Virus record (IMG/VR): IMGVR_UViG_3300032092_002720
Coordinates: 1-64,000 of that record
Origin: a virus
Lineage: Duplodnaviria > Heunggongvirae > Uroviricota > Caudoviricetes
Direction: 5' to 3' (one strand)
DNA: 64,000 nucleotides
In this document: positions 3,423-59,370 of the stretch, piece after piece
How positions within the stretch are numbered: position 1 is the stretch's first letter
Layout of the letters: each line of letters opens with the position of its first letter
Notes under the pieces: model-generated
Databases searched by the model: none
Told to the model about the DNA's origin: nothing
Seen by the model: the letters and a program-made list of their open reading frames with translations, nothing else
Made by a program: the position numbers and the translations under genes

Positions 3423-4037
3423 ATGATAGACGATAGTATGTTTGCATCTTATAGAGATGAATTTGAAAAAAATGGATTCGTAAAGATCAAGGGAGTTTTA
3501 TCTCCTGATATGATCGAGATGTATAAGGCCTTTATTGATATCTCGCATCTGAAGGCAATTAGAAAACCAGAATTCGGTCCTTATCTCGGAGGAGATATTG
3601 ATTCGATAGACCATAACATCCTCGATGATAGCATCTTGCTTTATTGTAAACACATCATCGAAAAAGTTTGGGGCATTCCAAACATGGTGCCTTCATATGC
3701 TTTCTCTCGAGAATATTATAGAGGCTCAGAACTGAAACTTCACCGCGATCGTGAAGCCTGTCAGTACTCTATCAGCATTACTATGTGTAAGATGGGAGAA
3801 GGTAGCACTCCTTTGTGGTTCAGTGAAAACGATGATAAGAGCAACGCTATACCTGTCGACCTTGATGAAGGCGATGCCATCATTTTCAACGGCGGTTCTG
3901 ACTATGGAGGTAAGTGGCACTGGAGAGATCCTCTTGAGATAGATTCTCTTTTCCAACTGTTCCTGCACTATGTCCATCCTGACACACCAACCCTCGCAGA
4001 CAACGATTTCCCGAGACCTTTTTATCGTTCTAGCTGA
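3423..4037 (+). CDS. 2OG-Fe(II) oxygenase, PhyH-like (putative)
   Basis: HxD (LHRDRE) with a downstream His (KWHWRDP) and an intervening DEGDAIIF strand. The pattern matches phytanoyl-CoA dioxygenase-like proteins. Confidence 0.45.
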   Translation: MIDDSMFASYRDEFEKNGFVKIKGVLSPDMIEMYKAFIDISHLKAIRKPEFGPYLGGDIDSIDHNILDDSILLYCKHIIEKVWGIPNMVPSYAFSREYYRGSELKLHRDREACQYSISITMCKMGEGSTPLWFSENDDKSNAIPVDLDEGDAIIFNGGSDYGGKWHWRDPLEIDSLFQLFLHYVHPDTPTLADNDFPRPFYRSS

Positions 4038-4039
4038 TT

Positions 4040-4086
4040 TTTAGGGTGTACATTTTATCAAAAGTTTGGTAAGGTGGACCTATAAT
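4040..4086 (+). promoter_or_regulatory. Phage promoter motif copy (GTGTACA-N17-TAAGGT + TATAAT)
   Basis: Conserved -35-like (C/G)ATGTACA, 17-nt spacer, -10-like TAnnnT. Second TATAAT at 4081-4086. Confidence 0.5.
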
Positions 4087-4102
4087 GATGAAGGACGAAA
4101 AC

Positions 4103-4570
4103 ATGAACATCACGATCACTGGTATGATTGGCAAGCGCAAAGAGAAAGCGCTTCTCAAGGAAGCCGCAGAGTTCTTTGCAGCTCAACTCATGGATCCTCG
4201 CATGGTTCGCAACCTCACCCTCGACATCGAAGTTTACAACAACCTTGATGTTGAAGGTGAATGCGTCGACGAAGATGGTTTTCGTAATCCTCGTTGGTTC
4301 ACCATCGGCCTCAAGAGCCAAGACATTAAAGCCATGATCAAGACTCTTGGCCATGAGATGGTGCATGTCAAGCAACATGCCAAGAACGAACTTCGTACTG
4401 GCCATGTAGTAGCTGCACGTGGCGGCCTTAAAATCTACAGCAAGTGGATGGGCGAAATCTGGAAGCCAAAGGGCAAAGAAGATCATTACTTCGATGCACC
4501 ATGGGAGATCGAAGCATACGGCCGCGAAGTTGGTCTGTATGCAAAATGGGTTCAATATAAAGGAAACTAA
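4103..4570 (+). CDS. HExxH zincin-like hypothetical protein
   Basis: HEMVHVKQH motif. Start moved from 4085 to the ATG at 4103 because 4085 lies inside the conserved promoter/5'UTR cassette (TATAATGATGAAGGA) that also precedes the ATG at 53121. Confidence 0.35.
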   Translation: MNITITGMIGKRKEKALLKEAAEFFAAQLMDPRMVRNLTLDIEVYNNLDVEGECVDEDGFRNPRWFTIGLKSQDIKAMIKTLGHEMVHVKQHAKNELRTGHVVAARGGLKIYSKWMGEIWKPKGKEDHYFDAPWEIEAYGREVGLYAKWVQYKGN

Positions 4571-13857: not shown

Positions 13858-13862
13858 CTTCT

Positions 13863-13914
13863 CGAAAATAAACATGTACATTTTATCAAAACTTTGGTAA
13901 GGTGGACCTATAAT
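13863..13914 (+). promoter_or_regulatory. Phage promoter motif copy
   Basis: AAATAAACATGTACA (13873-80), N17, TAAGGT, then TATAAT at 13909-14. Near-identical cassette to 4040-4086 and 53054-53104. Confidence 0.55.
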
Positions 13915-13931
13915 CAAGAAGGAAAAAACAC

Positions 13932-14177
13932 ATGTACTCCATTCAATATTTCGATCGTCTTAACAACAACCTCGACACCTCTTCGCCTAAATTCCCCACC
14001 ATTCAACTTCTCGTCGATTTTATCAATCAAAATCCCGACCTCGAATATTCAATCGCCCTTTACAAAAACTACTTCGTCGCCGCGACCGTCGACGATATCG
14101 TTCTTAACAAAAAACCTCGCCTAAAATTCGTCAGACTTATGTCTCGCCTATCTCCTGTGATTGATAATTACAACTAA
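13932..14177 (+). CDS. hypothetical protein
   Basis: Preceded by the promoter cassette and an AAGAAGGAAAAAA SD. Confidence 0.3.
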   Translation: MYSIQYFDRLNNNLDTSSPKFPTIQLLVDFINQNPDLEYSIALYKNYFVAATVDDIVLNKKPRLKFVRLMSRLSPVIDNYN

Positions 14178-15496: not shown

Positions 15497-16294
15497 ATGA
15501 ATCGTATTGCTAAGATCGCCGTTCTCGCTGGTTTGATGGCCACGACTGCTGCATGTACTCGAATTGAAACTGGTGAAGTTGGTGTTCGTCGGACATTTAA
15601 CAAGACTATTGAAACCACTGAACTGATGCCTGGTTCTGTTAATCAGACCATCTTTGGTGATGTATTGACGTTCCCAACGAAGGACGTTCAGGTTGACGTA
15701 GCTGACTTGACTCCACTCGCTTCGGATAACTCGACAGTTGCTGACTTCGATATGGCTGTCATCTACTCGATTAATCCTGGTTCGGTTGCAGAACTCTACA
15801 TCGAGAAGAACCGTGGCTTCCACGCTGACACCGAAGAAGGTGACACTCTCCTGATGTACAACTACATTCGTCAGCTTGGTCGCAATGCTGCCTATAAGGT
15901 TGCACGTAAGTATGAGTCATTGAAGATGGCTGATAATCGTGCTGAGATGGAACAACTGATTCGTCAGGAAGTTGTAGCACAGCTCGCTTCTGAGAAGCTT
16001 GACGGTGCAATTTCAATCTCACAGGTTCTTGTTCGTCAGGTAAAGCCTGCTGCAAATATCGTAGCCTCGGCTAATGCTCTTGTTCAGGCTCAGAATGCTG
16101 AAAAGCAAAAGCTGGTAGAGGTTCGTACCGCAAAGTTGGAAGCTGAACGTATTGCTGCTCTGAACGCCAACGCAGGCGCAACGAAGTACATGGAAGCAAC
16201 TGCTCTCGTAACGATCGCCGAAGCTGTCAAGGAAGGTAAGGTTTCTACCATTATCGTTCCTTACGACTTCAAGGGTATCGTCAACGTAAAGTAA
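15497..16294 (+). CDS. SPFH/band-7 (HflK/C-like) domain lipoprotein
   Basis: Signal peptide ending in the lipobox-like TAAC. GEVGVRR and a coiled ALVQAQNAEKQKLVEVRTAKLEAERIAA stretch typical of SPFH domains. Confidence 0.55.
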   Translation: MNRIAKIAVLAGLMATTAACTRIETGEVGVRRTFNKTIETTELMPGSVNQTIFGDVLTFPTKDVQVDVADLTPLASDNSTVADFDMAVIYSINPGSVAELYIEKNRGFHADTEEGDTLLMYNYIRQLGRNAAYKVARKYESLKMADNRAEMEQLIRQEVVAQLASEKLDGAISISQVLVRQVKPAANIVASANALVQAQNAEKQKLVEVRTAKLEAERIAALNANAGATKYMEATALVTIAEAVKEGKVSTIIVPYDFKGIVNVK

Positions 16295-17574: not shown

Positions 17575-18656
17575 CTTATTTTTTACGTACTGGTAATACT
17601 TACCGTGTAACTGACGAAGCTGCACTGGATCTCCATGAGTTGCTGCCTGCTGGTAACTACATCATCAAGCAAGATCAGTTTGGTAATTTGTTCCTCGAGG
17701 AAACTGATAAGTTCAAGCCGCTGAGTAAGTACTACGGCGATTGTTTGAAGCATGCTGATCGTATTCATCGTACTTTTGCCGATCGTCCTTCCAGCACTGG
17801 TGTCATGCTAACTGGCGAGAAGGGTTCTGGTAAGACTCTGCTTGCAAAGCAGCTTTCCATTCTCGGCTACGAGCTTGGTATTCCTACCATCATCATTAAT
17901 CATGACTGGACTGGCGATGCTTTCAATAAGTTCCTTGCAGACATCGATCAGCCATGCATTATCCTGTTCGACGAGTTCGAGAAGGTCTACAACCATCAGA
18001 AGCAGGAAGCTATCCTGACTCTGCTCGACGGTGTGTTTCCTTCGAAGAAGCTGTTCGTTCTGACTTGTAATGACAAGTGGCGTATCGACCAACATATGCG
18101 TAATCGGCCCGGTCGTATCTTCTACATGATTGACTTCAAGGGTCTGACGGCCGAGTTCATAGTTGAATATTGCAACGATAACCTCGAGGATAAGTCTCAT
18201 ATCGATCAGATCACGAAGATCGCTACTCTGTTTACTGAGTTCAACTTTGACATGCTGAAGGCAATGGTCGAAGACATGAACCGCTACGGTGAGACTCCAC
18301 AGGAAGTCATGCGACTCCTGAATGCCAAGCCCGAGTATGATAGTCGTGATGAGGCCAAGTTCAAGGTCGAGCTGTTTACCGAAAATGGCCAACAAGTCGA
18401 TGATAAGTTCCTGTACACTAAAATGTGGCATCGCAATCCATTGGCTAGCAACTCCATCTTTATTGAACTTAATGACGATGAAGATATCGATGGGCCTGAT
18501 GAATTCGATGGCTGTGAAGGCTACTCGTTCGACCAGTCTGAACTGATTAATATCAATGGCGAAACTGGTACGTTCGAGTATCGATCCAAGGATGGTTCTC
18601 GTCTTAAGCTGACTCGACAAAAGCAGCAAACCTTTAACTACTTTGGAGCTCTCTAA
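17571..18656 (+). CDS. AAA+ ATPase (clamp-loader-like)
   Basis: Walker A GEKGSGKT, Walker B ILFDEFE, sensor-like VLTCND and an arginine-finger-like RNRPGR. ATGA overlap. Confidence 0.6.
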   Translation: MTYFLRTGNTYRVTDEAALDLHELLPAGNYIIKQDQFGNLFLEETDKFKPLSKYYGDCLKHADRIHRTFADRPSSTGVMLTGEKGSGKTLLAKQLSILGYELGIPTIIINHDWTGDAFNKFLADIDQPCIILFDEFEKVYNHQKQEAILTLLDGVFPSKKLFVLTCNDKWRIDQHMRNRPGRIFYMIDFKGLTAEFIVEYCNDNLEDKSHIDQITKIATLFTEFNFDMLKAMVEDMNRYGETPQEVMRLLNAKPEYDSRDEAKFKVELFTENGQQVDDKFLYTKMWHRNPLASNSIFIELNDDEDIDGPDEFDGCEGYSFDQSELININGETGTFEYRSKDGSRLKLTRQKQQTFNYFGAL

Positions 18657-19765
18657 TGAAGGAAGCATGCATCGTCGGTTTTGGAATGATCGATGCGTTA
18701 GGCGATAATCCCATCGATTGTTGGGAGAATATGCTTAACGATCGAGACTTCCATAAACCTATTGAACCCCATGTACATGAAGGTCACACTCTTAAGGTAA
18801 AAACTGCCTTCTATCCTGATGTCGAGATCGACCAAGAATTGCAACCTCGTACTGTAGCATATGGTATGCATGCAGTCGAGCAAGCTTTGCATATGGCTGG
18901 TCTACCACACTCTTCAAGCGTAGGCGTCATCTTCTCGACTTTGACAGGTGGAAATTCCTTTAAAGCAAAGCTAGACGCCGTAGGCAGAAAGCAAAAGCCT
19001 AAGCAGATCCTTCGCTCTACGAAGGATTATCTCTGCAGCCAAATCTCAATCAAGTATGGATATACTGGTATCAATACCATGGTATATTCTGCTTGTGCTA
19101 CAGGTTTGGTAAGCATCGAATATGCTATGCGAATGCTCGATGAGTATGACTATGTGATCGTAGGCGGTTCTGATGCTGGCGTAAATCATATGGATCTCTA
19201 CTTCTTCTCGATTATCAAAGCAATCGGTTCGAAGTCGATGCCATTCGATAAGAATCGCGACGGCTTTATTATGGGCGAAGGCGCAGGTTGCATCATCCTT
19301 CAGTCGAGAGAAAAGGCCGAAGCGATGGGTTCGAAGGTCTATGCTCGTATCACTGGAGTTTCGAATGCTTCAGATGCACACGATCCGACTGCACCTTCTG
19401 GAGCCGGAGCTCGTCTTTGCTTGGAGAAGCTGGATCTCGAAGGAGTCGACTCAGTCAACTCACATGGAACCAGCACTCCACTCGGAGATGTGGTAGAGTA
19501 TGACGTGGTTCGCGAGTTTACTGATGCACCGATCTATTCCAATAAAGGAAAAATTGGACATACTTTCGCCGCGGCAGGTGTACTTGAAACGATTTATAGT
19601 GTACTGTCTATTCAGAACGGCGTGATTCCTCATACCGCTGGTTGTCAAGACACTGATATGGATGTGGTGACAGAGAACATCGAGACTGACGTCAAGAAGG
19701 TTCTTGTTAATTCATTTGGATTTGGTGGCAAGTGTTGTTCTATTATTGTTGAAAAGGAGTATTGA
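18656..19765 (+). CDS. Beta-ketoacyl-(ACP) synthase (KAS I/II-like, short form)
   Basis: Active-site Cys in YSACATG; His in NSHGTSTPLGD; His/Lys in NKGKIGHTFAAAG; C-terminal NSFGFGG. At 369 aa it is shorter than FabF. Confidence 0.8.
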   Translation: MKEACIVGFGMIDALGDNPIDCWENMLNDRDFHKPIEPHVHEGHTLKVKTAFYPDVEIDQELQPRTVAYGMHAVEQALHMAGLPHSSSVGVIFSTLTGGNSFKAKLDAVGRKQKPKQILRSTKDYLCSQISIKYGYTGINTMVYSACATGLVSIEYAMRMLDEYDYVIVGGSDAGVNHMDLYFFSIIKAIGSKSMPFDKNRDGFIMGEGAGCIILQSREKAEAMGSKVYARITGVSNASDAHDPTAPSGAGARLCLEKLDLEGVDSVNSHGTSTPLGDVVEYDVVREFTDAPIYSNKGKIGHTFAAAGVLETIYSVLSIQNGVIPHTAGCQDTDMDVVTENIETDVKKVLVNSFGFGGKCCSIIVEKEY

Positions 19766-44692: not shown

Positions 44693-45682
44693 ATGAATAA
44701 TCAAGATAAGATTGAACTGAACGAACTGAACAAGGAATCGAATGGTGGAACAGAACTTACCACTCGAAATCTCTTCCACCGACTTTCAAGTGATGAACTC
44801 GATGGTATCCAAATTATCACTGCTCGCGTCCGCGACCTTGATCCTAACCGAATTAAGATCTATCATCTACACGACCTTGCCGGCGATCCGGAGGCTTCAC
44901 ACCTTCAAGATCCAGCTTCTCGAGCTCGCTTCCAAAAGTTGGTCTTCAGCTCTAACTGGCAGTATCAACAGTATCGTGACTATCTTGGAGTTCCATATAG
45001 CAATCATTCAACAGTTATCGAAACAGGCATCGAGCCTATTCCACTCGTTGACAAACCAAAGGATAAGATACGTCTCATTTATACGTCCACGCCTCATCGT
45101 GGATTGGAGATTCTGGTTCCTGTTTTTATCGCTCTTGCCGATAAATATCCAAACATCGAGCTAGACGTCTTCTCTTCATTCGGCATCTATGGTCCAGGTT
45201 GGGAAGGTCGTGATCAGGCATACGAACCGCTGTTCGAAGCATGTCGTAATCATCCACAAATTAACTATCATGGCTGGGCAGATCAGGAGACAGTACGTGC
45301 CGCATATCAAAAAGCTCACATCTTTGCATATCCTTGTATCTGGCCGGAAACTTCGTGCAGGTCACTTATTGAAGCTATGTCGGCTGGTTGTCTGGCGGTT
45401 CATCCTAACTTCTCTGCTTTGGCTGACACGTCGGGCGGGTTGACTGTCCAGTATGACGGCGATCACGAGAATCCAAATCTGCATGCTAATATCTTTGCAC
45501 ACACTCTGATGTATGCTATCGAGAACATGCAACAAAATGACATGACTAACATGTTGTCATTTGTCAAAGCCTACGCAGATACTCGTTTCGGTTGGGATTC
45601 TGTAATTCCCAAGTGGAAGGGGCTCATTGCTTCGTTAAAGGAACAAAACCGTGATATTGGCCAAAGCACCACTCAGAGTTAG
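44693..45682 (+). CDS. Glycosyltransferase (GT-B, GT4-like)
   Basis: C-terminal ETSCRSLIEAMSAGCLAV (Ex7E-type donor-binding motif). Confidence 0.6.
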   Translation: MNNQDKIELNELNKESNGGTELTTRNLFHRLSSDELDGIQIITARVRDLDPNRIKIYHLHDLAGDPEASHLQDPASRARFQKLVFSSNWQYQQYRDYLGVPYSNHSTVIETGIEPIPLVDKPKDKIRLIYTSTPHRGLEILVPVFIALADKYPNIELDVFSSFGIYGPGWEGRDQAYEPLFEACRNHPQINYHGWADQETVRAAYQKAHIFAYPCIWPETSCRSLIEAMSAGCLAVHPNFSALADTSGGLTVQYDGDHENPNLHANIFAHTLMYAIENMQQNDMTNMLSFVKAYADTRFGWDSVIPKWKGLIASLKEQNRDIGQSTTQS

Positions 45683-46592
45683 TTTTTTCGGCGGGGGTAG
45701 TGATATCCCCGCCCACTTTGAAAAATGGGGTGGAGCAACCATCTCAACTGCCATTGACAAGTATGTCTATGTAGCAGTCATGCACACACCACACGACCAC
45801 ATCAAAGTTTCTTATTCGAAACAAGAGCTCGTTACAGACGTAGACGATATCCAGAATGAAATCGTTCGTAATGCACTCAAGTTCTTCGGTATCAAATCCA
45901 ACATCGAGATCACATCATTCGCAGACATTCCCACGATCGGTAACGGTCTTGGTGGATCGTCTGCTTTTACTTGTGCTCTGATTAAAGCTTTGTCAGCATA
46001 TCTTGGTTATGAATACGTAAATCCTTATCTTATTGCGAAGACTGCTTGCAATATCGAAATTGACATGTGCGGTTGGAAGATCGGCATGCAAGATCAGTTT
46101 GCGTCTACATTCGGCGGTATGAACTACATCGAGTATTCGAATAGTGGTCGTGTGAATGTAAAACGTTTGGATACAATGGCAATCGAGAACTATATGATCT
46201 TGATTCCTACAAACATAGAGCATCATGCAGCTAAGATCCTTGACAATATCAACTTTGAATCGAAAGAATTTACAATTCGTGAGCTTGCACGTATAGCAGA
46301 GATGCAAAGTACCCAACTTGTAAATCCATTTGAGTACGGTCGATTGCTCGATTCTGCATGGATTCTCAAGAAGCAGATGAGTGCTGAGATCTCCAGTAGT
46401 GATATAGATATTATGTACGACAAGTGCAAATCTGCTGGTGCCTATGGGGCTAAATTGCTTGGAGCCGGAGGCGGAGGATACATGCTAGCAATCACAGATT
46501 CGAAAGAAATGATTCGCCGAGAATTTTCAGACAGAACATGCCTCGATGTAGGTATCGCACATGAAGGAGCAAGAGTTGTCTATCGAGACTGA
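45651..46592 (+). CDS. GHMP sugar kinase (D-glycero-D-manno-heptose 7-phosphate kinase HddA-like)
   Basis: N-terminal PLRVSFFGGGSD; GHMP motif PTIGNGLGGSSAF; C-terminal GAKLLGAGGGGYML. Confidence 0.65.
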   Translation: MILAKAPLRVSFFGGGSDIPAHFEKWGGATISTAIDKYVYVAVMHTPHDHIKVSYSKQELVTDVDDIQNEIVRNALKFFGIKSNIEITSFADIPTIGNGLGGSSAFTCALIKALSAYLGYEYVNPYLIAKTACNIEIDMCGWKIGMQDQFASTFGGMNYIEYSNSGRVNVKRLDTMAIENYMILIPTNIEHHAAKILDNINFESKEFTIRELARIAEMQSTQLVNPFEYGRLLDSAWILKKQMSAEISSSDIDIMYDKCKSAGAYGAKLLGAGGGGYMLAITDSKEMIRREFSDRTCLDVGIAHEGARVVYRD

Positions 46593-47157
46593 CATTATAT
46601 TTGATCATATGGGCCTAATTAATATTGGGTTTGCAAGTATCGATCATGAAGAATTTAAAAAAGCAGCCGAACTAATTTGGCTGACAAGCATTTCAAATCA
46701 TCGTAACAACATCTATACTATCGGTAACGGTGCATCTGCATCCATCGCTCAGCATTGGGCGTGCGACTATACCAAAGGTTGTAAGAAAGGTGGATTACGC
46801 CCAAGAGTTATTTCTTTGGCGGCAAATATTCCACTGATGACAGCCGTGGCGAATGACATCTCCTATGACGACGTTTACTCGTTCCAGCTCGATGCACTCG
46901 GACAAGAAGGCGACGTACTCGTGGCCATCTCTTCGAGTGGTAATTCTCCAAACGTTGTCAAGGCAATTGAGACTGCTAAGTCATTGAAAATGAAGACTAT
47001 TGCCTTGACAGGTTTTTCACCAGATAATAAGTGCGCTCAACTCGCAGATATCTCTCTACATGTCGATATCCAAGAATACGAGGCAGCAGAAGACGTTCAT
47101 CAAGCTATTATGCATATGATTGCTAAATATATCAGAAACAGAGGTAAGGTTACATAA
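46561..47157 (+). CDS. gmhA: Sedoheptulose-7-phosphate isomerase GmhA (SIS domain)
   Basis: GNGASASIAQHW, EGDVLVAISSSGNSPNVVKAI and HQAIMHMI are collinear with E. coli GmhA. Confidence 0.8.
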   Translation: MKEQELSIETDIIFDHMGLINIGFASIDHEEFKKAAELIWLTSISNHRNNIYTIGNGASASIAQHWACDYTKGCKKGGLRPRVISLAANIPLMTAVANDISYDDVYSFQLDALGQEGDVLVAISSSGNSPNVVKAIETAKSLKMKTIALTGFSPDNKCAQLADISLHVDIQEYEAAEDVHQAIMHMIAKYIRNRGKVT

Positions 47158-51925: not shown

Positions 51926-52583
51926 AGGTTTCGAATACGATTTGCTAGACTTTGCGGAGCTGCAAAGGATAGATGGTCCAACACGTCTCTATGAGACGCC
52001 AGAAGGGAAGAGATATCCGTCTGTCACCGCCGTCCTCGGTAAGATGACTGATAAATCTGCCCTTGAAGCTTGGAAGAAAAGAGTAGGCGAGGACGAAGCA
52101 GCTCGAGTTTCATCTCGGGCTGCCACTCGTGGAACTAACATCCATACCATGTGTGAGAACTATGTGTTAGGTCATGACATCGATACGTCGATGCCTCATA
52201 ACATGATGATGTTCCGTCAGATCAAGATGATCCTTGACGACAAGGTCGACATGATCCGAGCCACAGAATGCACTCTGTTCTCTGATCATCTGAAGCTAGC
52301 AGGTTCATGCGACCTGATAGCAGACTACGACGGCCGTCTGTCGATCATCGACTATAAGACTTCGTCTAAACTCAAGCGTAAGGAATGGATCGAAGGTTAC
52401 TTCATGCAAGCCAGTCTCTATGCATACATGCTATGGGAAATGACAGGCATCTTAGTGAAGGACATCGTTATCATCATTGGTGTCGATGATTCTCTCGAGG
52501 CACAAGTGTTTAGGGAACGACCTCAAAACTACCTTGAGAAAGCGGTCGATCTGGTTCGATCTTACCATCAAATGTACGGATAA
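51894..52583 (+). CDS. PD-(D/E)XK nuclease-fold protein (Cas4/RecB-like)
   Basis: GSCDLIADYDGRLSIIDYKTS (D...D/E-x-K), with a downstream QASLYAYM. Confidence 0.45.
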   Translation: MLVKNSDFNRKGFEYDLLDFAELQRIDGPTRLYETPEGKRYPSVTAVLGKMTDKSALEAWKKRVGEDEAARVSSRAATRGTNIHTMCENYVLGHDIDTSMPHNMMMFRQIKMILDDKVDMIRATECTLFSDHLKLAGSCDLIADYDGRLSIIDYKTSSKLKRKEWIEGYFMQASLYAYMLWEMTGILVKDIVIIIGVDDSLEAQVFRERPQNYLEKAVDLVRSYHQMYG

Positions 52584-52586
52584 GAA

Positions 52587-52612
52587 AATGCGGCTTCGGT
52601 CGCATTTTTTTT
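52587..52612 (+). terminator. Intrinsic terminator
   Basis: ATGCG-GCTTCGGT-CGCAT followed by TTTTTTTT. Confidence 0.65.
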
Positions 52613-52663
52613 GACAATAAACATGTACAATATTTCGAAAACAATGTAAGGTGGAACTATAAT
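52613..52663 (+). promoter_or_regulatory. Phage promoter motif copy
   Basis: AATAAACATGTACA (52622-29), N17, TAAGGT, TATAAT at 52658-63. Confidence 0.55.
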
Positions 52664-52681
52664 CAAGAAGGAAAAAATATT

Positions 52682-52888
52682 ATGACTCGCTTATTTGAAT
52701 ACATCCTCGCTCAAGATGATCCATTTGATTTCATCTATGAAGCCCTCGGTGGAACGCATGGTGTTGAAACCATGAAGACTTGCACTGAGATGTATGGTGA
52801 TATCTCTGCAGACTACATGCTGCATCCAGATGATGACTTCGAACGCATCATTGAGATCATGGTCGAACAGATGGAGGATGATGTATGA
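52682..52888 (+). CDS. hypothetical acidic protein
   Basis: Promoter cassette upstream; AAGAAGGAAAAAATATTATG. Confidence 0.3.
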   Translation: MTRLFEYILAQDDPFDFIYEALGGTHGVETMKTCTEMYGDISADYMLHPDDDFERIIEIMVEQMEDDV

Positions 52889-53061
52889 GTAGTTCTATTC
52901 TTGCCTTTTCCTACTTTGGCAGAGAGACTGTTGAGAGAGCAGTCGCTGCATATTTTGCCAAGCACGGCGTTACAGAAGATGTCCGTGACTATCTGATGGT
53001 TCTCGAAGACGAAAAGCCAGACGATTTTTTTCAGCTAGTTTGTGATTTTATCGAAAAATAA
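52885..53061 (+). CDS. micro-protein (58 aa)
   Basis: ATGA-coupled; not in the table. Confidence 0.25.
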   Translation: MSSSILAFSYFGRETVERAVAAYFAKHGVTEDVRDYLMVLEDEKPDDFFQLVCDFIEK

Positions 53062-53104
53062 GCATGTACATTTTATCAAAACTTTGGTAAGGTGGACCTA
53101 TAAT
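53054..53104 (+). promoter_or_regulatory. Phage promoter motif copy
   Basis: AAATAAGCATGTACA (53063-70), N17, TAAGGT, TATAAT at 53099-104. Confidence 0.55.
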
Positions 53105-53120
53105 GATGAAGGAAGAAAAA

Positions 53121-53267
53121 ATGTTGAAGTACGTAGCAGTTTTCGCCGGTCTGATGATTATGTGTGTTCCTGAAGATGCAAGCTTTCTTCAGTTCGCCGT
53201 ACAAGGCCTCATCGGTCTCTCCATCTTTATCGCTGGTACAGTCGCACTGATTGATTCGGCTGAATAA
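53121..53267 (+). CDS. small membrane protein (48 aa)
   Basis: Directly downstream of the promoter cassette; two hydrophobic helices. Confidence 0.3.
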   Translation: MLKYVAVFAGLMIMCVPEDASFLQFAVQGLIGLSIFIAGTVALIDSAE

Positions 53268-53270
53268 TTT

Positions 53271-53311
53271 TAAAATAAACATGTACAAATAAGCCATTCT
53301 TTGGTAGAATG
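53271..53311 (+). promoter_or_regulatory. Phage promoter motif copy
   Basis: AAATAAACATGTACA (53280-87), N17, TAGAAT at 53305-10. Confidence 0.55.
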
Positions 53312-53342
53312 GTATTACCAAATTGAAAAAGGAAACTATATT

Positions 53343-54290
53343 ATGGCACATATGATTGAATTTCTCGACGGCAAGGCTTCGATGGCTTATGCAGGAGAAA
53401 CACCTTGGCATCACCTCGGCACGAAGGTCTCGAACGACCTCACTCCGAATCAGATGCTGAAGGCAGCAAACCTCGACTGGAAGGTCAATCCAGTTCCTGC
53501 TTTCGCCGATATTGGTGGCAAGCAAGTCGACATCGGTCACTCCGCTCTGGTTCGTGACGTCGACAACAAGATCCTCGACGTGATCACTAACGATTGGGTT
53601 CCTAATCAGAACGAATCAGCCTTCGAATTCTTCAATGATTTCGTTGCAGCCGGTGAGATGGAAATGCACACCGCTGGTTCGCTTCGCGATGGTCAGCTTG
53701 TTTGGGCCTTGGCAAAGGTGAAGGATTCCTTCGAATTGTTCAAAGGCGATCAGGTCGATTCCTACCTGCTCTTCACCAATCCGCATAAGTATGGTTGGTC
53801 GATCGATGTCCGCTTCACGCCAGTTCGCGTTGTTTGCAACAACACTCTGACTCTCTCGCTCAACAGCCAGTCGAGCAAGATCGTCAAGGTTAGCCATCGC
53901 CGCGAGTTTGACGGTGACGTTGTCAAGGAAACGCTCGGCGTAGCCAAGGAAAAGCTTGCGAAGTACAAGGAAATGGCTGCTTATCTTGGTTCGAAGCGCT
54001 ACACTGACGAGAACATCGTCGAGTATTTCCAGCGTGTATTCCCTGTTACTGGTTCGAAGAAGGATCTCAGCAAGAATGCTGGTATCGCTCTCGAAATCAT
54101 GGACCAACAACCTGGTGCCGAGTTTGGCGAAGGTAGCTGGTGGCAGGCTTTCAACGCGGTTACCTTCATGACTGACCACATGATTGGTCGTAATGCAGAT
54201 AATCGTATGACTTCTGCTTGGTACGGTTCGAACAAGAACCTCAAGACGAAGGCATTGGAAACTGCCATCGAATTTGCAGACGCAGCATGA
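53343..54290 (+). CDS. hypothetical 315-aa protein (DUF932-like?)
   Basis: The N-terminal region loosely resembles the phage/plasmid DUF932 family. The ATG at 53343 follows an AAAAAGGAAACT SD. Confidence 0.3.
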   Translation: MAHMIEFLDGKASMAYAGETPWHHLGTKVSNDLTPNQMLKAANLDWKVNPVPAFADIGGKQVDIGHSALVRDVDNKILDVITNDWVPNQNESAFEFFNDFVAAGEMEMHTAGSLRDGQLVWALAKVKDSFELFKGDQVDSYLLFTNPHKYGWSIDVRFTPVRVVCNNTLTLSLNSQSSKIVKVSHRREFDGDVVKETLGVAKEKLAKYKEMAAYLGSKRYTDENIVEYFQRVFPVTGSKKDLSKNAGIALEIMDQQPGAEFGEGSWWQAFNAVTFMTDHMIGRNADNRMTSAWYGSNKNLKTKALETAIEFADAA

Positions 54291-54517
54291 TTGTAACTTA
54301 CCTGCCATGGCTAATGTCATGCCTTACCATTTGGATGACATTGCTGGCGGGTAACAATCATCCTCGGGCGTGGGCAGTCGGTCTTGCGAATCAGGTCCTA
54401 TGGGTGACATGGATTATTGCCAGTCAAACATGGGGCCTGATTCCAATGAGCATTGCTCTTGCGATTGTATATGCTCGAAATCATTTTAAATGGAATGCGG
54501 AGGATAGGAATGTTTGA
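54287..54517 (+). CDS. small membrane protein
   Basis: ATGA-coupled; two TM helices. Confidence 0.3.
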   Translation: MIVTYLPWLMSCLTIWMTLLAGNNHPRAWAVGLANQVLWVTWIIASQTWGLIPMSIALAIVYARNHFKWNAEDRNV

Positions 54518-54848
54518 AGTTAAGAGTCGTTCTGTCGAATCGTGGGGACCTCTTGCTTTTCTTAGCGAGAGTAAGTTCAATCAGATCCTCAACAGTCAGC
54601 CTGGTTCTACGAAGGATAAGATCAAGAAACTCAAGAAGCTCAAGACTTATAAGGTTCAGTTCAAGAAAGTTTGGCAATCAGGTTACTTTGAAATCCAGGC
54701 TCAAGATGACTACTCTGTTGGTATTGCAGCTAAGCAATACTTTAAGGAGAATGCAGAATCCATCGAGTTCGAAGAACAAGCTCGCAATCAGTGGGCAGAT
54801 GGTTATGCAGGTTATGATTCGTTTAGTTATGTAAAGGTAAGGAGTTAA
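54510..54848 (+). CDS. hypothetical protein
   Basis: AGGATAGGAATG SD. Confidence 0.3.
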   Translation: MFEVKSRSVESWGPLAFLSESKFNQILNSQPGSTKDKIKKLKKLKTYKVQFKKVWQSGYFEIQAQDDYSVGIAAKQYFKENAESIEFEEQARNQWADGYAGYDSFSYVKVRS

Positions 54849-54851
54849 GTT

Positions 54852-55094
54852 ATGTTTTGGTTATATGGTTTTATTGCATTGCTTTTAGGACGGACGTTCT
54901 ATGCAGGCATGAGTTATAAGACTCTGTTTTATCGTGATCCTAAGCGTTACGGTGAAACAGGTCAGCAGGTGGATGATGATCGGGTTGTTGGTTATATCCT
55001 GAGAACAGTCGTCGTTGCGCTTACTTGGCCGATATCTTTGCCTTTGATCGGCATCTTCAAAATTGGTCAGAAGTTTGGTAGGAAGGAAGCTTAA
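54852..55094 (+). CDS. small membrane protein
   Basis: Hydrophobic helices. Confidence 0.3.
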   Translation: MFWLYGFIALLLGRTFYAGMSYKTLFYRDPKRYGETGQQVDDDRVVGYILRTVVVALTWPISLPLIGIFKIGQKFGRKEA

Positions 55095-55095
55095 T

Positions 55096-55335
55096 ATGTG
55101 GTTATGGTTAATTGTTGCTATTTTGCTCATTGCAATTGGTGTGTATGTTCTCGGCACACTCGATTGGGATGAAGATCAAAAGGTCGGTCTGTTTTGGATT
55201 ATCTTTATTTGCTCGTTGTTGTGGCCGCTTGCACTTGGTATAGTAGTCGTAGCAGGTCCGTTTGTCGGTCTCTTCTGGCTCGGTAATCGCAAGCGTAAGA
55301 AGCTCGAGAAGGAAAAATCTACCACGAATAAATAA
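55096..55335 (+). CDS. small membrane protein
   Basis: Two TM helices, then a basic tail. Confidence 0.3.
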   Translation: MWLWLIVAILLIAIGVYVLGTLDWDEDQKVGLFWIIFICSLLWPLALGIVVVAGPFVGLFWLGNRKRKKLEKEKSTTNK

Positions 55336-55339
55336 GTGA

Positions 55340-55525
55340 ATGGTAGAAGAAAATGGTACTTACTTTGTAGGCATGTCTTTCGAAACCGAGGAGAACGAAG
55401 AGATCGTCTTCCCGGTGATGTTCCATACGAAGAATTACAAAGAAGCGCTGACACTCACTCGATGCATTGCCGCTGGCGATCCAAGAAAACGAGTGATGTT
55501 TGCAGATATTGATGAGGAGTTCTAA
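55340..55525 (+). CDS. hypothetical protein
   Basis: Short ORF. Confidence 0.25.
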   Translation: MVEENGTYFVGMSFETEENEEIVFPVMFHTKNYKEALTLTRCIAAGDPRKRVMFADIDEEF

Positions 55526-55526
55526 T

Positions 55527-55877
55527 ATGAAGAAACTTATTGCATCTTTAGTTGTCGGTAGTATGTTAATCTCTACTCCTGCCTTTGCTGATCATCGTCG
55601 AGATCGAAATCGCGACCATGTCCAGCAAGAGCGTCGTAAAGCTGGCTGTGGCTGGCTTTGCGGCGCTATCATTGGAGGTGTTGTAGTTGGTGCTCTGAGC
55701 TCGGGTAATCGAGATCGCGAGAGGGATCGCGAGAGAGAAAGAGATTATGAGCCATACAACGAAATCCGCTATTACCCGCCTGATTATAGATATGATAGAC
55801 GTTATTGTGTTCGCGAGCAGATTACCGAATGGTATCGTGGAGAACGCTACGTTTATTGGGAAACCCGTTGTAACTAA
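55527..55877 (+). CDS. Secreted RD/RE dipeptide-repeat protein
   Basis: Signal peptide MKKLIASLVVGSMLISTPAFA, then HRRDRNRDH ... RDRERDRERERD repeats. Confidence 0.4.
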   Translation: MKKLIASLVVGSMLISTPAFADHRRDRNRDHVQQERRKAGCGWLCGAIIGGVVVGALSSGNRDRERDRERERDYEPYNEIRYYPPDYRYDRRYCVREQITEWYRGERYVYWETRCN

Positions 55878-55887
55878 GGAATAATAT

Positions 55888-56325
55888 ATGAAGAATTTTA
55901 TTGCGCTAGCACTTGTGATGCTGGCAACTCCAGCTATCGCGCAGAAGACGCCTACAGGTGTGACGTATGATACTACCATTGTCCGTGCGATTGATGGTGA
56001 TACGATTGTCATTACCGCACCATACCTACCAGCTCCTCTTAAGCCTGAGCTCGGTGTTCGAATCTTTGGTGTCGATACACCTGAAAAGAGCTTTCGTGCC
56101 AAGTGTGAGAGCGAGAAGAAGCGTGGCGAACAATCCAGTGAATTCACCAATTTGGTAATCAAATCTACAAAGAAGCATCAGGTTGTTTTGTACGATTGGG
56201 ATAAGTTCGGTGGTCGTGTTCTTGGAGATATTCTCCTTGACGGCATGAGCCTTCGAGATCTTCTTATCAAGAACGGTTTTGCGCGTGCATATTTTGGTGA
56301 TGCAAAGCAATCTTGGTGCAATTAA
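55888..56325 (+). CDS. Secreted staphylococcal-nuclease (SNase/thermonuclease) homologue
   Basis: Signal peptide; RAIDGDTIVI and RIFGVDTPE match the SNase Ca-binding/active-site motifs. Confidence 0.6.
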   Translation: MKNFIALALVMLATPAIAQKTPTGVTYDTTIVRAIDGDTIVITAPYLPAPLKPELGVRIFGVDTPEKSFRAKCESEKKRGEQSSEFTNLVIKSTKKHQVVLYDWDKFGGRVLGDILLDGMSLRDLLIKNGFARAYFGDAKQSWCN

Positions 56326-56357
56326 GCATGTACAATTAAAGCCCGTTGGGGTATAAA
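56319..56357 (+). promoter_or_regulatory. Phage promoter motif copy driving the tmRNA region
   Basis: AAGCATGTACA (56327-34), N17, TATAAA at 56352-57; no ORF downstream for ~650 nt. Confidence 0.55.
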
Positions 56358-56405
56358 TAGAATATCAGTTGTTGACAATCAACGATAAAAGTGCCGAGGA
56401 CGCGG

Positions 56406-56800
56406 GGGCAGTACCCGCCGCCTCCACCATCTATACTGGCACCAAGAACGCCACGGGGTTACCTAGGGACTGCAGCCCGAAAAGCATCTGGTGAGAAGTG
56501 CAGGTAGCAGCCAGTATAGATGATGGGGGCGAACTAGGATCGACTGGGACAGAATAAGGCGGTTTGAGACTGATTGCTTGGCAAAGTGCCACTAAACATA
56601 AATGCTAACGATAACGATAGCTTTGCAGATATCCGCCTAGCGGCATGATCTACACGGGTATGGCTCCACCTTGGAACAGAACGGGCCACTTGCTACCAGT
56701 TGAATCGCTGGTGCTACGAGTCACCAGAAAAAACGCTGGTGTAAGTATAAATAAAATATCACGACGGAGGTTGAAATCCTCCATTGACTCTTGCAAAACT
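56406..56800 (+). ncRNA. ssrA: tmRNA (ssrA), apparently circularly permuted two-piece form
   Basis: 56406-56439 (GGACGCGGG-GGCAGUA-CCCGC-CGCCUCC-ACCA) is nearly identical in arrangement to the E. coli tmRNA 3' end. 56524-56549 (GGGGGCGAACUAGGAUCGACUGGGAC) matches the tmRNA 5' end, and GGGGGCG pairs with CGCCUCC including a G3:U wobble. A tag reading frame at 56603-56644 encodes ANDNDSFADIRLAA followed by UGA. The whole region is ORF-free. The 3' boundary is uncertain. Confidence 0.7.
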
Positions 56801-57007
56801 TCAAGTCTTAGATGGCTAGAAAGCGGCATCATTCGGATGCCACCGACGAAAACACTAATGATTTTGCATTTCCAGTAAGAGGGAAATGGATGGAAGATAC
56901 TTCGTTATTCTCTTGTGTATCTTCTTATAGCGGCAGAAAACTATATGGCTGGGATGCCTGTAAAGTAGTCTCTGTTTGCCAAAGTCATTGAGACTAAGAG
57001 GAAGAAC

Positions 57008-57586
57008 ATGAAACTTTTCGAAAATAGAAAAGATTATCCGTATCTACGCTGGGCCGAAGGCTTTGTCATAGGTATCATTGCAGTAACAGGTGTGGCTTTG
57101 GCTACTCCAACGAAAGAACCTGAAGTCAAGATCGTAAAGGTCCCAGTGGTTCAGGTAATCGAAAAAGAAAAAGTCGTAAAGAAGCCTGTTTATCTCAGTG
57201 CTCACGACAAAAAACAAATCCAATGCATGGCCGAGAATACATACTTCGAAGCGGGTCATGAACCTTATAAAGGTAGGATTGCGGTAAACAATGTTGTTTT
57301 GAACCGCGCTAAAGATAAAAGATTCCCTAGCACACCATGTGGAGTTATCAATCAGAGAACTGCGCGCGTATGCCAATTTTCATGGAAGTGTGAGGGAGGA
57401 AAGCGAATAGCTGATGCAGGCGCATATCGAAAAGCCAAAGAAATCGCCGAACACGTGTATCTCGGAAATTACGGTGACGTAACAAGAGGAGCAAAGTTTT
57501 ACCACGCAGATTACGTAAGCCCTTCATGGGGTAGAGTATTTGATCGCACCACCAAGATCGGTGCACATATTTTTTATAGAGGATGA
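57008..57586 (+). CDS. SleB/CwlJ-type cell-wall hydrolase with N-terminal signal-anchor
   Basis: N-terminal TM segment; then CMAENTYFEAGHEP...IAVNNVVLNRAKDKRFPSTPCGVINQ...QFSW, the Hydrolase_2 signature. Confidence 0.65.
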   Translation: MKLFENRKDYPYLRWAEGFVIGIIAVTGVALATPTKEPEVKIVKVPVVQVIEKEKVVKKPVYLSAHDKKQIQCMAENTYFEAGHEPYKGRIAVNNVVLNRAKDKRFPSTPCGVINQRTARVCQFSWKCEGGKRIADAGAYRKAKEIAEHVYLGNYGDVTRGAKFYHADYVSPSWGRVFDRTTKIGAHIFYRG

Positions 57587-57590
57587 TATT

Positions 57591-57836
57591 ATGGTGGACG
57601 ACGTCATTTCAACGAAAGCATTGACTTCTGAAAAGTTCATTAAAGAAATTGAACGATTGGTTTCTAATTATAACTTAGATTATATGGATGCCGTCGTCCA
57701 CTATTGCGAAAAGAATAACATCGAGATCGAGGCTGCTGCAAGTATCATTCGCAGTAACATTCGTATCAAGGCTCGTCTACAAGACGAAGCAGAAGATCTT
57801 AACTTCTTGCCAAAGAGGGCTAAGTTGCCAGTATGA
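57591..57836 (+). CDS. gp33-like late-transcription accessory protein (putative)
   Basis: Position (immediately 5' of gp59-gp32) and an acidic C-terminal helix collinear with T4 gp33. Weak. Confidence 0.35.
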   Translation: MVDDVISTKALTSEKFIKEIERLVSNYNLDYMDAVVHYCEKNNIEIEAAASIIRSNIRIKARLQDEAEDLNFLPKRAKLPV

Positions 57837-58408
57837 GCCCATTCGAGAGCTATACCACCTTTCTCGCCCTTAAAAATCACTTCACAACAGACAGTTACGA
57901 CTACATCAAATACAATGGCAAAGTAGGAGCAAAGCCTTCTAGCTTTGATGTGCGTAAGGACAAGTATCAGTTCTATAAGCTGTCAAAACATAAAGATCCA
58001 CTCAAATATCTGGTTGCCAACTTTGTAGACGGCGATCTGAAATGGATAGGCGATCTGTTCAGCGATGACTCAGAGAAAGTGTACAATGAATGGTTGAAGA
58101 GACAGCAGTCTCTTTCTTATATCTTTGAACAAGATATGAAAAAACTATGTACAAATTTCAACGATAATGTTATAGTAAAAAATGGACAGCATCCCTATCT
58201 GTTGAAACAATATCTTCGTCGAGAGATTTCTATCGAGACGGTGATTATCCTCAACGATATCTTCGGGTTCTTCGGTCATTGGAACAAGAAGATTGAGGAT
58301 ACAGTCCTATGGCCCAGCATCCACAAGAAGCTGCTGAAGTATAAGCCGTTCTTTCATTATGATGTATTCAGGTGTAGAAAAATTGTCAAGGACGTCTTTA
58401 TTTCATGA
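57833..58408 (+). CDS. 59: Helicase loader (T4 gp59-like)
   Basis: SYDYIKYNGKV...RKDKYQFYKLSKH...LVANFVDGDLKWIGDLFSDD is collinear with T4 gp59 (KYDVIKYNW...RRDKYFFQKLSEK...LVANQDAWIGDISD). Confidence 0.7.
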   Translation: MSPFESYTTFLALKNHFTTDSYDYIKYNGKVGAKPSSFDVRKDKYQFYKLSKHKDPLKYLVANFVDGDLKWIGDLFSDDSEKVYNEWLKRQQSLSYIFEQDMKKLCTNFNDNVIVKNGQHPYLLKQYLRREISIETVIILNDIFGFFGHWNKKIEDTVLWPSIHKKLLKYKPFFHYDVFRCRKIVKDVFIS

Positions 58409-58473
58409 TAAATACAGTTGCAGTTCGCTGCAATCTAAATACTTCGAAACACACCGACATATAGGAGATAACT

Positions 58474-59370
58474 ATGTCATTTGCAGACCTTAAGCGTTCT
58501 TCCAGCTCTTCTTTCGAGAAGCTCACTAAAGAACTTGCTAAACAAAACACCACCTATTCAGATCCCGATGAGGGCAAATATTGGAAGCCTACCGTCGATA
58601 AGGCTGGTAACGGATACGCTGTGATTCGTTTCCTTCCTGCTCCGGCAAACGAGGACATTCCTTTCGTTCGCATCTGGGACCATGGATTCCAAGGACCAAC
58701 AGGTCTTTGGTACATCGAGAAGTCGCTTACGACTCTCGGTAAAGACGATCCCGTGTCAGAATACAACAGCGTTCTTTGGAACACTGGTCTTGACTCTGAT
58801 AAGGAGATCGCACGCAAGCAGAAGCGCCGCTTGGCATACCACAGCAACATCTATGTTGTGAAGGATCCAGGCAATCCTGCGAACGAAGGTAAGGTCTTCC
58901 TGTACAAGTACGGAAAGAAGATCTTCGATAAGCTGAACGACCTCATGAACCCAGGTTTTGAGGACGAGAAGCCAGTAAATCCTTTCGATCTTTGGAACGG
59001 TGCTAATTTCAAGCTCAAAATTCGTAAGGTCGAAGGTTGGCCTAACTACGATAAGTCAGAATTCGACTCTCCCGCACCACTGTTCGATGATGACAGTGAG
59101 CTTGAACGTGTCTACACTCAAGAGTATTCGCTTGCCGAACTCGTAGATACAAAGCAATTCAAGTCTTATGAGGACCTCAAGACTCGTCTTAATACTGTCT
59201 TGGCACTTTCTGCGGAACCTGCTAAGATTCGCGGCGTTGATCGTGATGAAGAGGAGTATAAAGCTCCTGCGCCTACCTTCAAGGCGACTGCTGCACCTGC
59301 TGCGGCTTCTACGGTCGATGAAGACGACGATGATCTCGATTTCTTCAAACGACTTGCCGAAGAAGATTGA
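58474..59370 (+). CDS. 32: ssDNA-binding protein (T4 gp32-like)
   Basis: AGNGYAVIRFLP, YVVKDPGNPANEGKVFLYKYGKKIFDKL, and an acidic C-terminal tail (DEDDDDLDFF) match the T4 gp32 hallmarks. Confidence 0.85.
   Translation: MSFADLKRSSSSSFEKLTKELAKQNTTYSDPDEGKYWKPTVDKAGNGYAVIRFLPAPANEDIPFVRIWDHGFQGPTGLWYIEKSLTTLGKDDPVSEYNSVLWNTGLDSDKEIARKQKRRLAYHSNIYVVKDPGNPANEGKVFLYKYGKKIFDKLNDLMNPGFEDEKPVNPFDLWNGANFKLKIRKVEGWPNYDKSEFDSPAPLFDDDSELERVYTQEYSLAELVDTKQFKSYEDLKTRLNTVLALSAEPAKIRGVDRDEEEYKAPAPTFKATAAPAAASTVDEDDDDLDFFKRLAEED

Follow-up and report, generated by a model that had tools for sequence, protein, structure and literature searches.

What is encoded between the endonuclease and cell-wall hydrolase genes of IMG/VR virus record IMGVR_UViG_3300032092_002720, where the supported protein-coding genes leave positions 56326-57007 unoccupied? 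We analysed 64,000 nt (64 kb) of this record, which we call the window; all coordinates are window positions, and the element discussed here lies on the + strand. The initial annotation of this DNA proposed that a region free of open reading frames (ORFs), behind a copy of a phage promoter, holds a circularly permuted (two-piece) gene for transfer-messenger RNA (tmRNA), with the 3' acceptor/CCA half ahead of the 5' half. That proposal is borne out by ARAGORN, by two Rfam covariance models and by covariation among relatives, and the promoter copy, TATAAATA, is present as described; the tmRNA itself fills only ~56364-56745 of the unoccupied region. In sequence and structure, gene order, conservation and covariation the element is a tmRNA gene, and these features identify it as a phage-borne, circularly permuted (two-piece) gene of the alphaproteobacterial structural type. 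By analogy with characterised tmRNAs, it is very probably a functional permuted ssrA gene carried by a lytic T4-like myovirus. Two-piece tmRNAs of phages were published in 2022, and the gene described here is a further example of that class, not a new one. What appears to go beyond the published phage two-piece tmRNAs is that, judged from sequence, the tRNA-like half of the molecule is swapped as a cassette between close relatives.

Identification of a permuted tmRNA gene

Exactly one gene was called by ARAGORN in the 64 kb, a permuted tmRNA at 56337-56739 that is flagged 'tmRNA*' and has the tag ANDNDSFADIRLAA. Using cmscan with Rfam, we found a full-length match to RF04321 (tmRNA_permuted) at 100.3 bits (cut-off 47; E = 2.4e-18 over the window) and an end-to-end match to RF01849 (alpha_tmRNA) at 87.3 bits (cut-off 50; E = 2.8e-22 over the window); both scores are about twice their cut-offs. 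Permuted detection with ARAGORN and the Rfam covariance models were the checks suggested in the initial annotation, and both gave tmRNA matches. Within the tmRNA clan, the Rfam scan retained alpha_tmRNA and dropped three lower-scoring matches, and a permissive scan of 56200-57100 (E ≤ 10) returned only the two tmRNA models and noise.

The gene order runs from the T-arm/CCA element (56398-56429) to the 5' acceptor strand (56525) and then to the tag (56604). We found no second T-arm/CCA element and no second GGGGGCG 5' strand in the window, and nothing tRNA-like 3' of the tag. A standard, one-piece order, which would have contradicted the proposal, is therefore ruled out: the window holds a single T-arm/CCA element, and it is not downstream. 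The individual elements are largely those first described, with corrected positions. The T-arm/CCA sequence GGAC-GCGGG-GGCAGUA-CCCGC-CGCCUCC-ACCA is correct, but it had been placed at 56406-56439, 8-10 nt too high. Similarly, the 5'-end element GGGGGCGAACUAGGAUCGACUGGGAC is present but starts at 56525 rather than 56524, 95 nt past the CCA rather than 84. The predicted pairing of GGGGGCG with CGCCUCC, including the wobble G3(56527).U70(56423), was confirmed, and so was the tag frame GCU...GCA UGA encoding ANDNDSFADIRLAA. The tRNA-like domain thus has a 7-bp acceptor stem with G3.U70, a discriminator A and an encoded ACCA end (56426-56429). Its T-loop, GGCAGUA, had been described as non-canonical; it is not, since the consensus of the alpha_tmRNA model is GGCgGUA. 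Coordinates of all features are collected in Table 1.

Table 1. Positions of the tmRNA gene, its parts and the neighbouring genes in the window.
Feature	Position	Strand	Remarks
T4-type late promoter TATAAATA (putative)	56352-56359	+	predicted start ~56364-56367
Acceptor piece, predicted ~65 nt	56364-56429	+	from cmscan alignments
Outer-helix 5' strand AUCAGU(U)	56364-56370	+	in acceptor piece
P2a strand, acceptor piece	56392-56398	+	
T-stem GCGGG/CCCGC, 5 bp	56402-56406 with 56414-56418	+	
T-loop GGCAGUA, 7 nt	56407-56413	+	
Acceptor 3' strand CGCCUCC	56419-56425	+	7-bp stem with GGGGGCG
Discriminator A	56426	+	
Encoded CCA	56427-56429	+	
Intervening spacer, 95 nt	56430-56524	+	predicted to be excised
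Spacer terminal stem, 13 bp	56428-56440 with 56510-56522	+	prolongs acceptor helix
Leader UGAU ahead of G1	56521-56524	+	
Coding piece	56525-56745	+	3' end between ~56690 (alpha_tmRNA match end) and 56745; ARAGORN end 56739
Acceptor 5' strand GGGGGCG	56525-56531	+	G3 = 56527
D-loop analogue	56532-56543	+	
P2a strand, coding piece	56544-56551	+	
Outer-helix 3' strand	56568-56574	+	
Hairpin UGGCA-AAG-UGCCA, 5 bp, 3-nt loop	56579-56591	+	
Tag frame: GCU resume codon, ANDNDSFADIRLAA, UGA stop (56646-56648)	56604-56648	+	ARAGORN
3' pseudoknot: GGGU 56656-56659/ACCU 56668-56671; UGGCUC 56661-56666/GGGCCA 56683-56688	56656-56688	+	fits 3' end of alpha_tmRNA model
Conserved motif AACAGAA	56675-56681	+	spanned by 3' pseudoknot
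3' terminal hairpin CUGGUG-CUACGAGU-CACCAG	56708-56727	+	behind conserved motif AGUUGAAUCG
Candidate exchangeable tRNA-like-domain cassette	56384-56557	+	both P2a strands, T-arm, acceptor strands, spacer, D-loop analogue
Endonuclease gene	55888-56325		upstream neighbour of tmRNA
Cell-wall hydrolase gene	57008-57586		first of four genes behind tmRNA
gp33 gene	57591-57836		PF16805, 65 bits; followed by gp59, gp32

The spacer between the two pieces, which we infer to be removed from the transcript, is predicted to fold at -41.5 kcal/mol (z = -3.1). The hairpin at 56708-56727 may serve as a 3' stabiliser or as a terminator; it has no U-tract, and a terminator scan gave no terminator at this position. 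Its place is taken in two relatives, L033 and L111, by another hairpin, GAGACU...GGUCUC. Two sets of candidates in the region were rejected. An alternative pairing from co-folding, of GUGCCGA in the acceptor piece with UUGGCA (56578-56583), is not kept in the closest relative, L033. The ORFs inside the tmRNA region (41-77 aa) and a 59-aa ORF at 56812-56991 have no family matches and no homologues in relatives, and they are not called in an assembly in the European Nucleotide Archive (ENA).

Conservation and covariation among relatives

Two scans of IMG/VR, one with a degenerate acceptor-piece pattern and one with a coding-piece motif, each found at least 119 contigs, which makes both gene and locus very common in this database; over 200 IMG/VR contigs have tmRNA relatives. 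The 119 contigs of the first scan and the window gave 120 sequences for analysis. Among the matches listed, a GGGG[GA]CG strand lies 4-264 nt 3' of the CCA in 117 of the 120. The T-loop is GGC[A/G]GUA in all 120, a fit that is partly by design, since only the A/G position was free in the pattern. For the same kind of reason, pairing of the acceptor stem in all 100 unique relatives is not independent evidence: the 3' strand was selected by the scan pattern and the 5' strand by the regular expression used for extraction, such that neither was left free. By contrast, the closing pair of the T-stem was the sole T-stem pair that the search pattern left free, and it is Watson-Crick in 100/100 unique relatives (G-C 36, C-G 32, U-A 25, A-U 7). 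The second P2a pair, which occurs as three main pair types, is formed in 99/100, whereas shuffling gave a mean of 47.

Because a plain MAFFT alignment misaligned the variable helices, counting pairs by column did not work for the outer helix or for the inner part of P2a. We therefore used duplex energies, comparing each contig's own partner strand with the partner strands of other contigs, with cross controls. Cognate strands pair better than non-cognate strands in the outer helix (-8.3 versus -6.5 kcal/mol) and in P2a (-5.5 versus -3.8 kcal/mol), and the cross controls for these two helices showed no difference. Cognate strands also pair better in the terminal stem of the spacer, with -10.5 versus -5.2 kcal/mol across 91 relatives and a median of 1.1% of non-cognate strands equalling the cognate one, and in the main stem of the 3' pseudoknot (-11.6 versus -7.5 kcal/mol; 84 relatives), whose variants include GGCGGUUU/AAACCGCC and GGGGAG/CUCCCC. 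The leader UGAU stands directly before G1 in 71 of 103 relatives. L033 and L111, the closest relatives with other tags, keep the promoter and both tmRNA pieces; the T-stem pair that is G-C in the window changes to U-A, a compensatory change. Their spacer sequence is unrelated to that of the window, yet its terminal stem is retained, again with compensatory changes.

The tag segment is nearly invariant. Exactly the tag of the window is found on 37 contigs among the matches listed in the second scan, and over these 37 and the window (38 sequences) its coding sequence shows a difference at one nucleotide, a synonymous change of CUA to UUA. The genes flanking the same 38 loci differ by 4-15% (85-96% identical). 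Conservation of the tag region above that of the flanking genes favours a functional gene over a decoy or a pseudogene.

The position of the gene is conserved as well. The locus order is PhoH...tmRNA-(cell-wall hydrolase)-gp33-gp59-gp32, and in related loci gp33 (25/25), gp59 (35/35) and gp32 (32/32) lie downstream on the same strand, with PhoH upstream (29/29). A 51-nt gapped tmRNA pattern found nothing in cellular genomes, and the 23-nt 5' end GGGGGCGAACUAGGAUCGACUGG occurs on one contig only among 185,579 species-representative genomes, and that contig is itself phage-like. It is the 160,757-bp contig JBBAQX010000002.1 (L122), deposited in a 'Lysinibacter sp.' metagenome-assembled genome (MAG). 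Besides a tRNA cluster and a permuted tmRNA (tag ANDNVAPRLALAA), it has a gene homologous to the T4-like phage gene at window 53301-54290, and it probably represents a phage that was binned with an actinobacterial MAG.

Exchange of the tRNA-like domain between close relatives

When aligned with the window by megablast, five contigs with 90-96% identity elsewhere all show breaks at 56430 and 56553. Contig L237 is 100% identical to the window over 56319-56383 (65 nt) and 56560-56760 (201 nt); between these blocks, its sequence has only ~19% local identity to the 174 nt of the window (56384-56557). The domain in L237 combines a T-arm CGGGG-UUCGACU-CCCCG and an acceptor stem GCACCUCC/GGGGGUG with a P2a of its own (CGGAAA/UUUUCG) and a different spacer. 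The contigs involved in the swap are L237, L187, L193, L224, L190 and L196, with breakpoints at ~56384, 56430 and 56553. Alleles of the UUCGACU type pass the tmRNA_permuted model, but fail or barely pass alpha_tmRNA. They are the common form in this group: 12 of the 13 contigs with near-identical flanks have a UUCGACU domain, and the alpha-type domain is found only on the window's own contig.

Spacers are hypervariable. Contigs of the UUCGACU type with identical flanks and tag have spacers of 5-122 nt. Spacer lengths range from 4 to 264 nt over ~210 IMG/VR loci, and the spacers of at least 40 nt (n = 168) fall into 96 sequence clusters, with the terminal stem always kept. One spacer can occur with different T-arm types; the 95-nt spacer of the window is 97% identical in L235, where it stands beside a UUCGACU T-arm and a different tag.

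The simplest explanation of these sequence patterns is that the tRNA-like domain is exchanged as a cassette by recombination. The permuted order would help such exchange, because it makes the whole tRNA-like domain one contiguous block of DNA. We found no published description of cassette exchange of the tRNA-like domain in the literature that we consulted, which does not disprove an earlier report. A rearrangement of another kind is seen in a close relative, L164 (~3460-4547, minus strand), in which the tmRNA is followed by a ~330-nt insert and then by a second, partial copy of the mRNA-like domain that is identical to that of the window; judged by its sequence, this looks like a recombination scar.

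Exchange of the cassette means that the tmRNA type is not usable for host inference. The host clue that the initial annotation took from the occurrence of two-piece tmRNAs in alphaproteobacteria and some cyanobacteria is thus weak: near-identical contigs carry a domain that is not alpha-type, and the phage Melnitz has an alpha-type tmRNA that is mismatched to its OM43 host, which is not an alphaproteobacterium (PMC9004378). It is possible, though we consider it unlikely, that the exchange is adaptive, fitting the domain to whichever alanyl-tRNA synthetase (AlaRS), SmpB or RNase P a given host has, or evading host nucleases that target the tRNA-like domain. If so, phage tmRNA would be a locus of arms race and host range, and not a passive housekeeping gene. 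With the tRNA-like half exchanged and the tag half fixed, these phages provide natural allele pairs that bear on the role of phage tmRNA.

A putative late promoter at a conserved distance

The sequence TATAAATA is the T4 late-promoter consensus. The window has seven copies, all of them on the + strand, where 2.2 would be expected over the two strands together. Of 102 unique regions upstream of related tmRNA genes, 62 have an exact copy 41-50 nt ahead of the T-arm, or 65 with three copies at -33/-34 included; a further 13 of these regions have a copy with one mismatch, and the background is 0.11 per kb. The start predicted from the promoter spacing is the first base of the outer helix, and it coincides with the start of the Rfam tmRNA_permuted match at 56367. 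We found no sigma-70-like site upstream of the tmRNA gene in the window. From this fixed spacing of a late promoter, the tmRNA is predicted to be expressed late.

Other promoters occur in front of other tmRNA genes. The tmRNAs of L018, L031, L061 and L092 have no late promoter and instead have a TGTG(A/G)TATAAT extended -10 element, and the tmRNA gene of Melnitz is reported to stand behind an early promoter (PMC9004378). The timing of tmRNA expression may therefore differ between phage lineages.

Several further signals lie near the gene or share sequence with its upstream region. A second copy of TATAAATA at 56746-56753 opens the remainder of the region (56746-57007); it is followed by a hairpin, GGAGG-UUGAAAU-CCUCC (~56766-56782), and the leader that separates it from the start of the hydrolase gene (57008) is unusually long, at ~250 nt. 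The stretch 56746-57007 has a fold z-score of -2.2 and no Rfam match. A repeated cassette of ~60 nt, ...AAGCATGTACATTTTATCAAAAcTTTGGTAAGGTGGACCTATAATGATGAAGGAAGAAAACATG, is located directly before three ORF starts (4047-4105, 13859-13935 and 53057-53123), and from its sequence looks like a mobile module of promoter plus ribosome-binding site. Its first 11 nt (AAGCATGTACA) recur at 56324-56334, just before the tmRNA promoter.

Comparison with known two-piece tmRNAs

Two-piece ssrA genes were described in phage Melnitz and in pelagimyophages by Buchholz et al. (2022; PMC9004378), whose ARAGORN predictions for isolate phage genomes comprised 53 two-piece tmRNAs, of which 50 were aquatic; they also reported permuted tmRNA genes in 17 of 47 Melnitz-like contigs. 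A tmRNA database of 2025 holds 79 unique bacteriophage tmRNAs (PMC11915505), and tmRNA genes of mycobacteriophages and of phage G were listed in earlier work (PMC4131195). The window therefore adds one more uncultured T4-like phage to a published set of aquatic phages with their own two-piece rescue RNA, which alone raises no new question.

The nearest described counterparts are Methylophilales phage Melnitz and the cultured Pelagibacter phage Mosig EXVC030M (MT647606, SsrA at 111467-111805), which are likewise T4-like aquatic myoviruses with a permuted tmRNA that passes the alpha-type Rfam model. They share the locus with the window: the tmRNA gene precedes that of the late-transcription coactivator gp33, and gp59 and gp32 follow. 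In Mosig the annotated SsrA, which ARAGORN and Rfam also identify as permuted and alpha-type, stands directly before gp33; in the window, a cell-wall hydrolase gene stands between the tmRNA and gp33. The sequences of both phages are distant, with gp59 ~40% identical to that of the window, and Mosig differs in both its T-loop, which is of the GUGCAACU type, and its tag, GEDNFALAA. The promoters also differ, the one reported for Melnitz being early and the one in the window being a late promoter at conserved distance. A glutamine (glnA) riboswitch has been reported in Melnitz, within the ssrA 3' domain, and in Mosig; it is common but not defining (PMC9004378). We found no glnA or Downstream-peptide motif in 56200-57100 with Rfam at E ≤ 10, and no glnA riboswitch at the gathering score in 7.6 kb around the Mosig ssrA. 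The same region of Mosig (L123, 5276-5483) has a manA RNA motif (RF01745, 64 bits) upstream of a rubrerythrin gene, between gp59 and gp32.

Among cellular tmRNAs, the two-piece tmRNA of Caulobacter crescentus (RF01849; Keiler, Shapiro and Williams, 2000, as cited in PMC9004378) shares with the window the order of acceptor piece, spacer and coding piece, the T-loop GGCRGUA, G3.U70, a tag that starts with ANDN and ends with AA, and a 3' pseudoknot around AACAGAA. Unlike the Caulobacter gene, the gene in the window is phage-borne and its tag ends with IRLAA, and the cmscan alignment lacks the distal P2 helices of the alpha model. Mycobacteriophages of the Bxz1 group and Bacillus phage G also have ssrA genes, presumed to aid or manipulate ribosome rescue, but these are of standard order and belong to other lineages (PMC4131195).

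The sole DNA-level match in a collection of cultured phages was to Erythrobacter phage vB_EliS-L02 (OL955261, ~75738-76146), over 40 nt of T-arm and acceptor. This phage has a permuted tmRNA (alpha_tmRNA, 83.7 bits) whose tag ends with RLAA as in the window. It differs in being a 150-kb siphovirus with the tag VNDNDVVVARDEVRLAA and with the tmRNA at the end of a cluster of 12 tRNA genes, outside a gp33-gp59-gp32 locus. We note that the deposited record annotates neither the permuted tmRNA nor the 12 tRNA genes that we detected in OL955261.1 at 74299-77338 (L124).

A model for tmRNA function, and alternatives

For the timing of transcription, processing, aminoacylation and trans-translation, we take the two-piece tmRNA of Caulobacter as a model. 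Late in infection, a gp55-type sigma factor and the gp33 coactivator, encoded 0.85 kb downstream, would initiate at TATAAATA, near 56365, and give a single precursor of ~380 nt. In the folded precursor CGCCUCC would pair with GGGGGCG, with the hairpin of the 95-nt spacer prolonging the acceptor stem. Host RNase P would cleave 5' of G56525, and 3' trimming would free the encoded CCA at 56429, such that the spacer is lost and an acceptor piece of ~65 nt and a coding piece of ~170-220 nt remain, joined by the acceptor stem, P2a and the outer helix. Host AlaRS would charge the RNA with alanine via G3.U70 and A73, and SmpB, presumably that of the host, would bring the charged RNA to stalled ribosomes. 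Translation would resume at GCU (56604) and append ANDNDSFADIRLAA, directing the truncated protein to degradation of the ClpXP type and freeing the ribosome. A likely benefit is that ribosomes are kept available during the late burst of protein synthesis, when decay of mRNA yields non-stop messages.

Some observations weigh against a functional gene of this kind, or against parts of the model. Function depends on a compatible host SmpB, and none was found in the 64 kb; a tblastn search of the window with an E. coli SmpB sequence gave insignificant matches only, inside the ribonucleotide reductase (RNR) gene, which, with 64 kb searched, is weak evidence. P2a is imperfect in the allele of the window, with a G.G mismatch or bulges and non-standard pairs in cmscan. 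No pseudoknot PK1 can be drawn upstream of the resume codon in the window, where there is just the 5-bp hairpin 56579-56591; from inspection of the alignment, an H-type pseudoknot is possible at this position in L003 and similar relatives. The window's allele was seen on its own contig only, 12 near-identical contigs having the other allele, and it could be a recent, less fit recombinant. Lastly, the early promoter reported for Melnitz means that late timing is not universal. The imperfect P2a and the failure to find an SmpB gene in the window, together with the rearrangement at the locus seen in the partial duplication of L164, would also suit a gene taken up from a host or another phage that has since lost its function and is decaying or a neutral passenger. 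We nonetheless regard this as highly improbable: every diagnostic element is intact, compensatory changes are seen in five helices over more than 100 contigs, both locus and promoter are kept, and the tag region is nearly invariant.

The RNA might instead act mainly as an inhibitor or decoy that titrates host SmpB or AlaRS, so shutting down trans-translation in the host, or that absorbs nucleases targeting tRNA-like RNAs. Titration of this kind, with shutdown of trans-translation, has been proposed for an RNA of mycobacteriophage DS6A (PMC4131195; PMC11915505), which consists of a tRNA-like domain only and, unlike the RNA of the window, has no tag frame; moreover, the part that is swapped among near-identical phages is the tRNA-like domain, a pattern frequent at interfaces of host interaction. 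A decoy would need neither tag frame, nor resume context, nor 3' pseudoknot, all of which are intact and conserved above the flanking protein genes, and we consider this role very unlikely. We give almost no credence to an integration-site fragment (an attP-like piece of a host ssrA) or to a contaminant from a host or from assembly, even though integration into tmRNA genes is frequent and prophages can hold fragments of ssrA (PMC9004378; PMC4383910). The gene is complete and not a 3' piece, it is on the coding strand between T4-like genes and behind a phage late promoter, and no integrase is present among the ORFs scanned in the window. The same arrangement is found in independent assemblies, both in L238 (99.9% identical) and in many related contigs. 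The preferred reading is thus still that of a functional permuted ssrA gene.

The source phage and other observations

The window is part of an uncultured T4-like myovirus and encodes a family-B DNA polymerase, a gp41-like helicase, large and small RNR subunits, UvsX, Hsp20, ThyX, gp33, PhoH, an exonuclease, the gp59 helicase loader and gp32. Its closest cultured phages are cyanomyoviruses (polymerase ~50% identical) and pelagiphages (gp59 ~40%); no match longer than 40 nt was found in the collection of cultured-phage DNA, and there is therefore no close cultured relative in that collection. The gp32 of the window is present in ENA assembly ERZ27248021 and in Joint Genome Institute (JGI) metagenome 3300031786, and the 99.9% identity of IMG/VR contig L238 extends over window 51958-58855.

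Elsewhere in the window, a 687-aa ORF (1353-3416, + strand) combines a CHASE2 sensor with the catalytic domain of an adenylate/guanylate cyclase, an unusual signalling gene for a phage. There are also host-like metabolic genes, encoding a FabF-like beta-ketoacyl synthase (18656-19765), an SPFH/Band-7 protein (15497-16294) and a cluster resembling a sugar pathway (44693-47157), which comprises a glycosyltransferase, a GHMP kinase and a SIS-domain isomerase.

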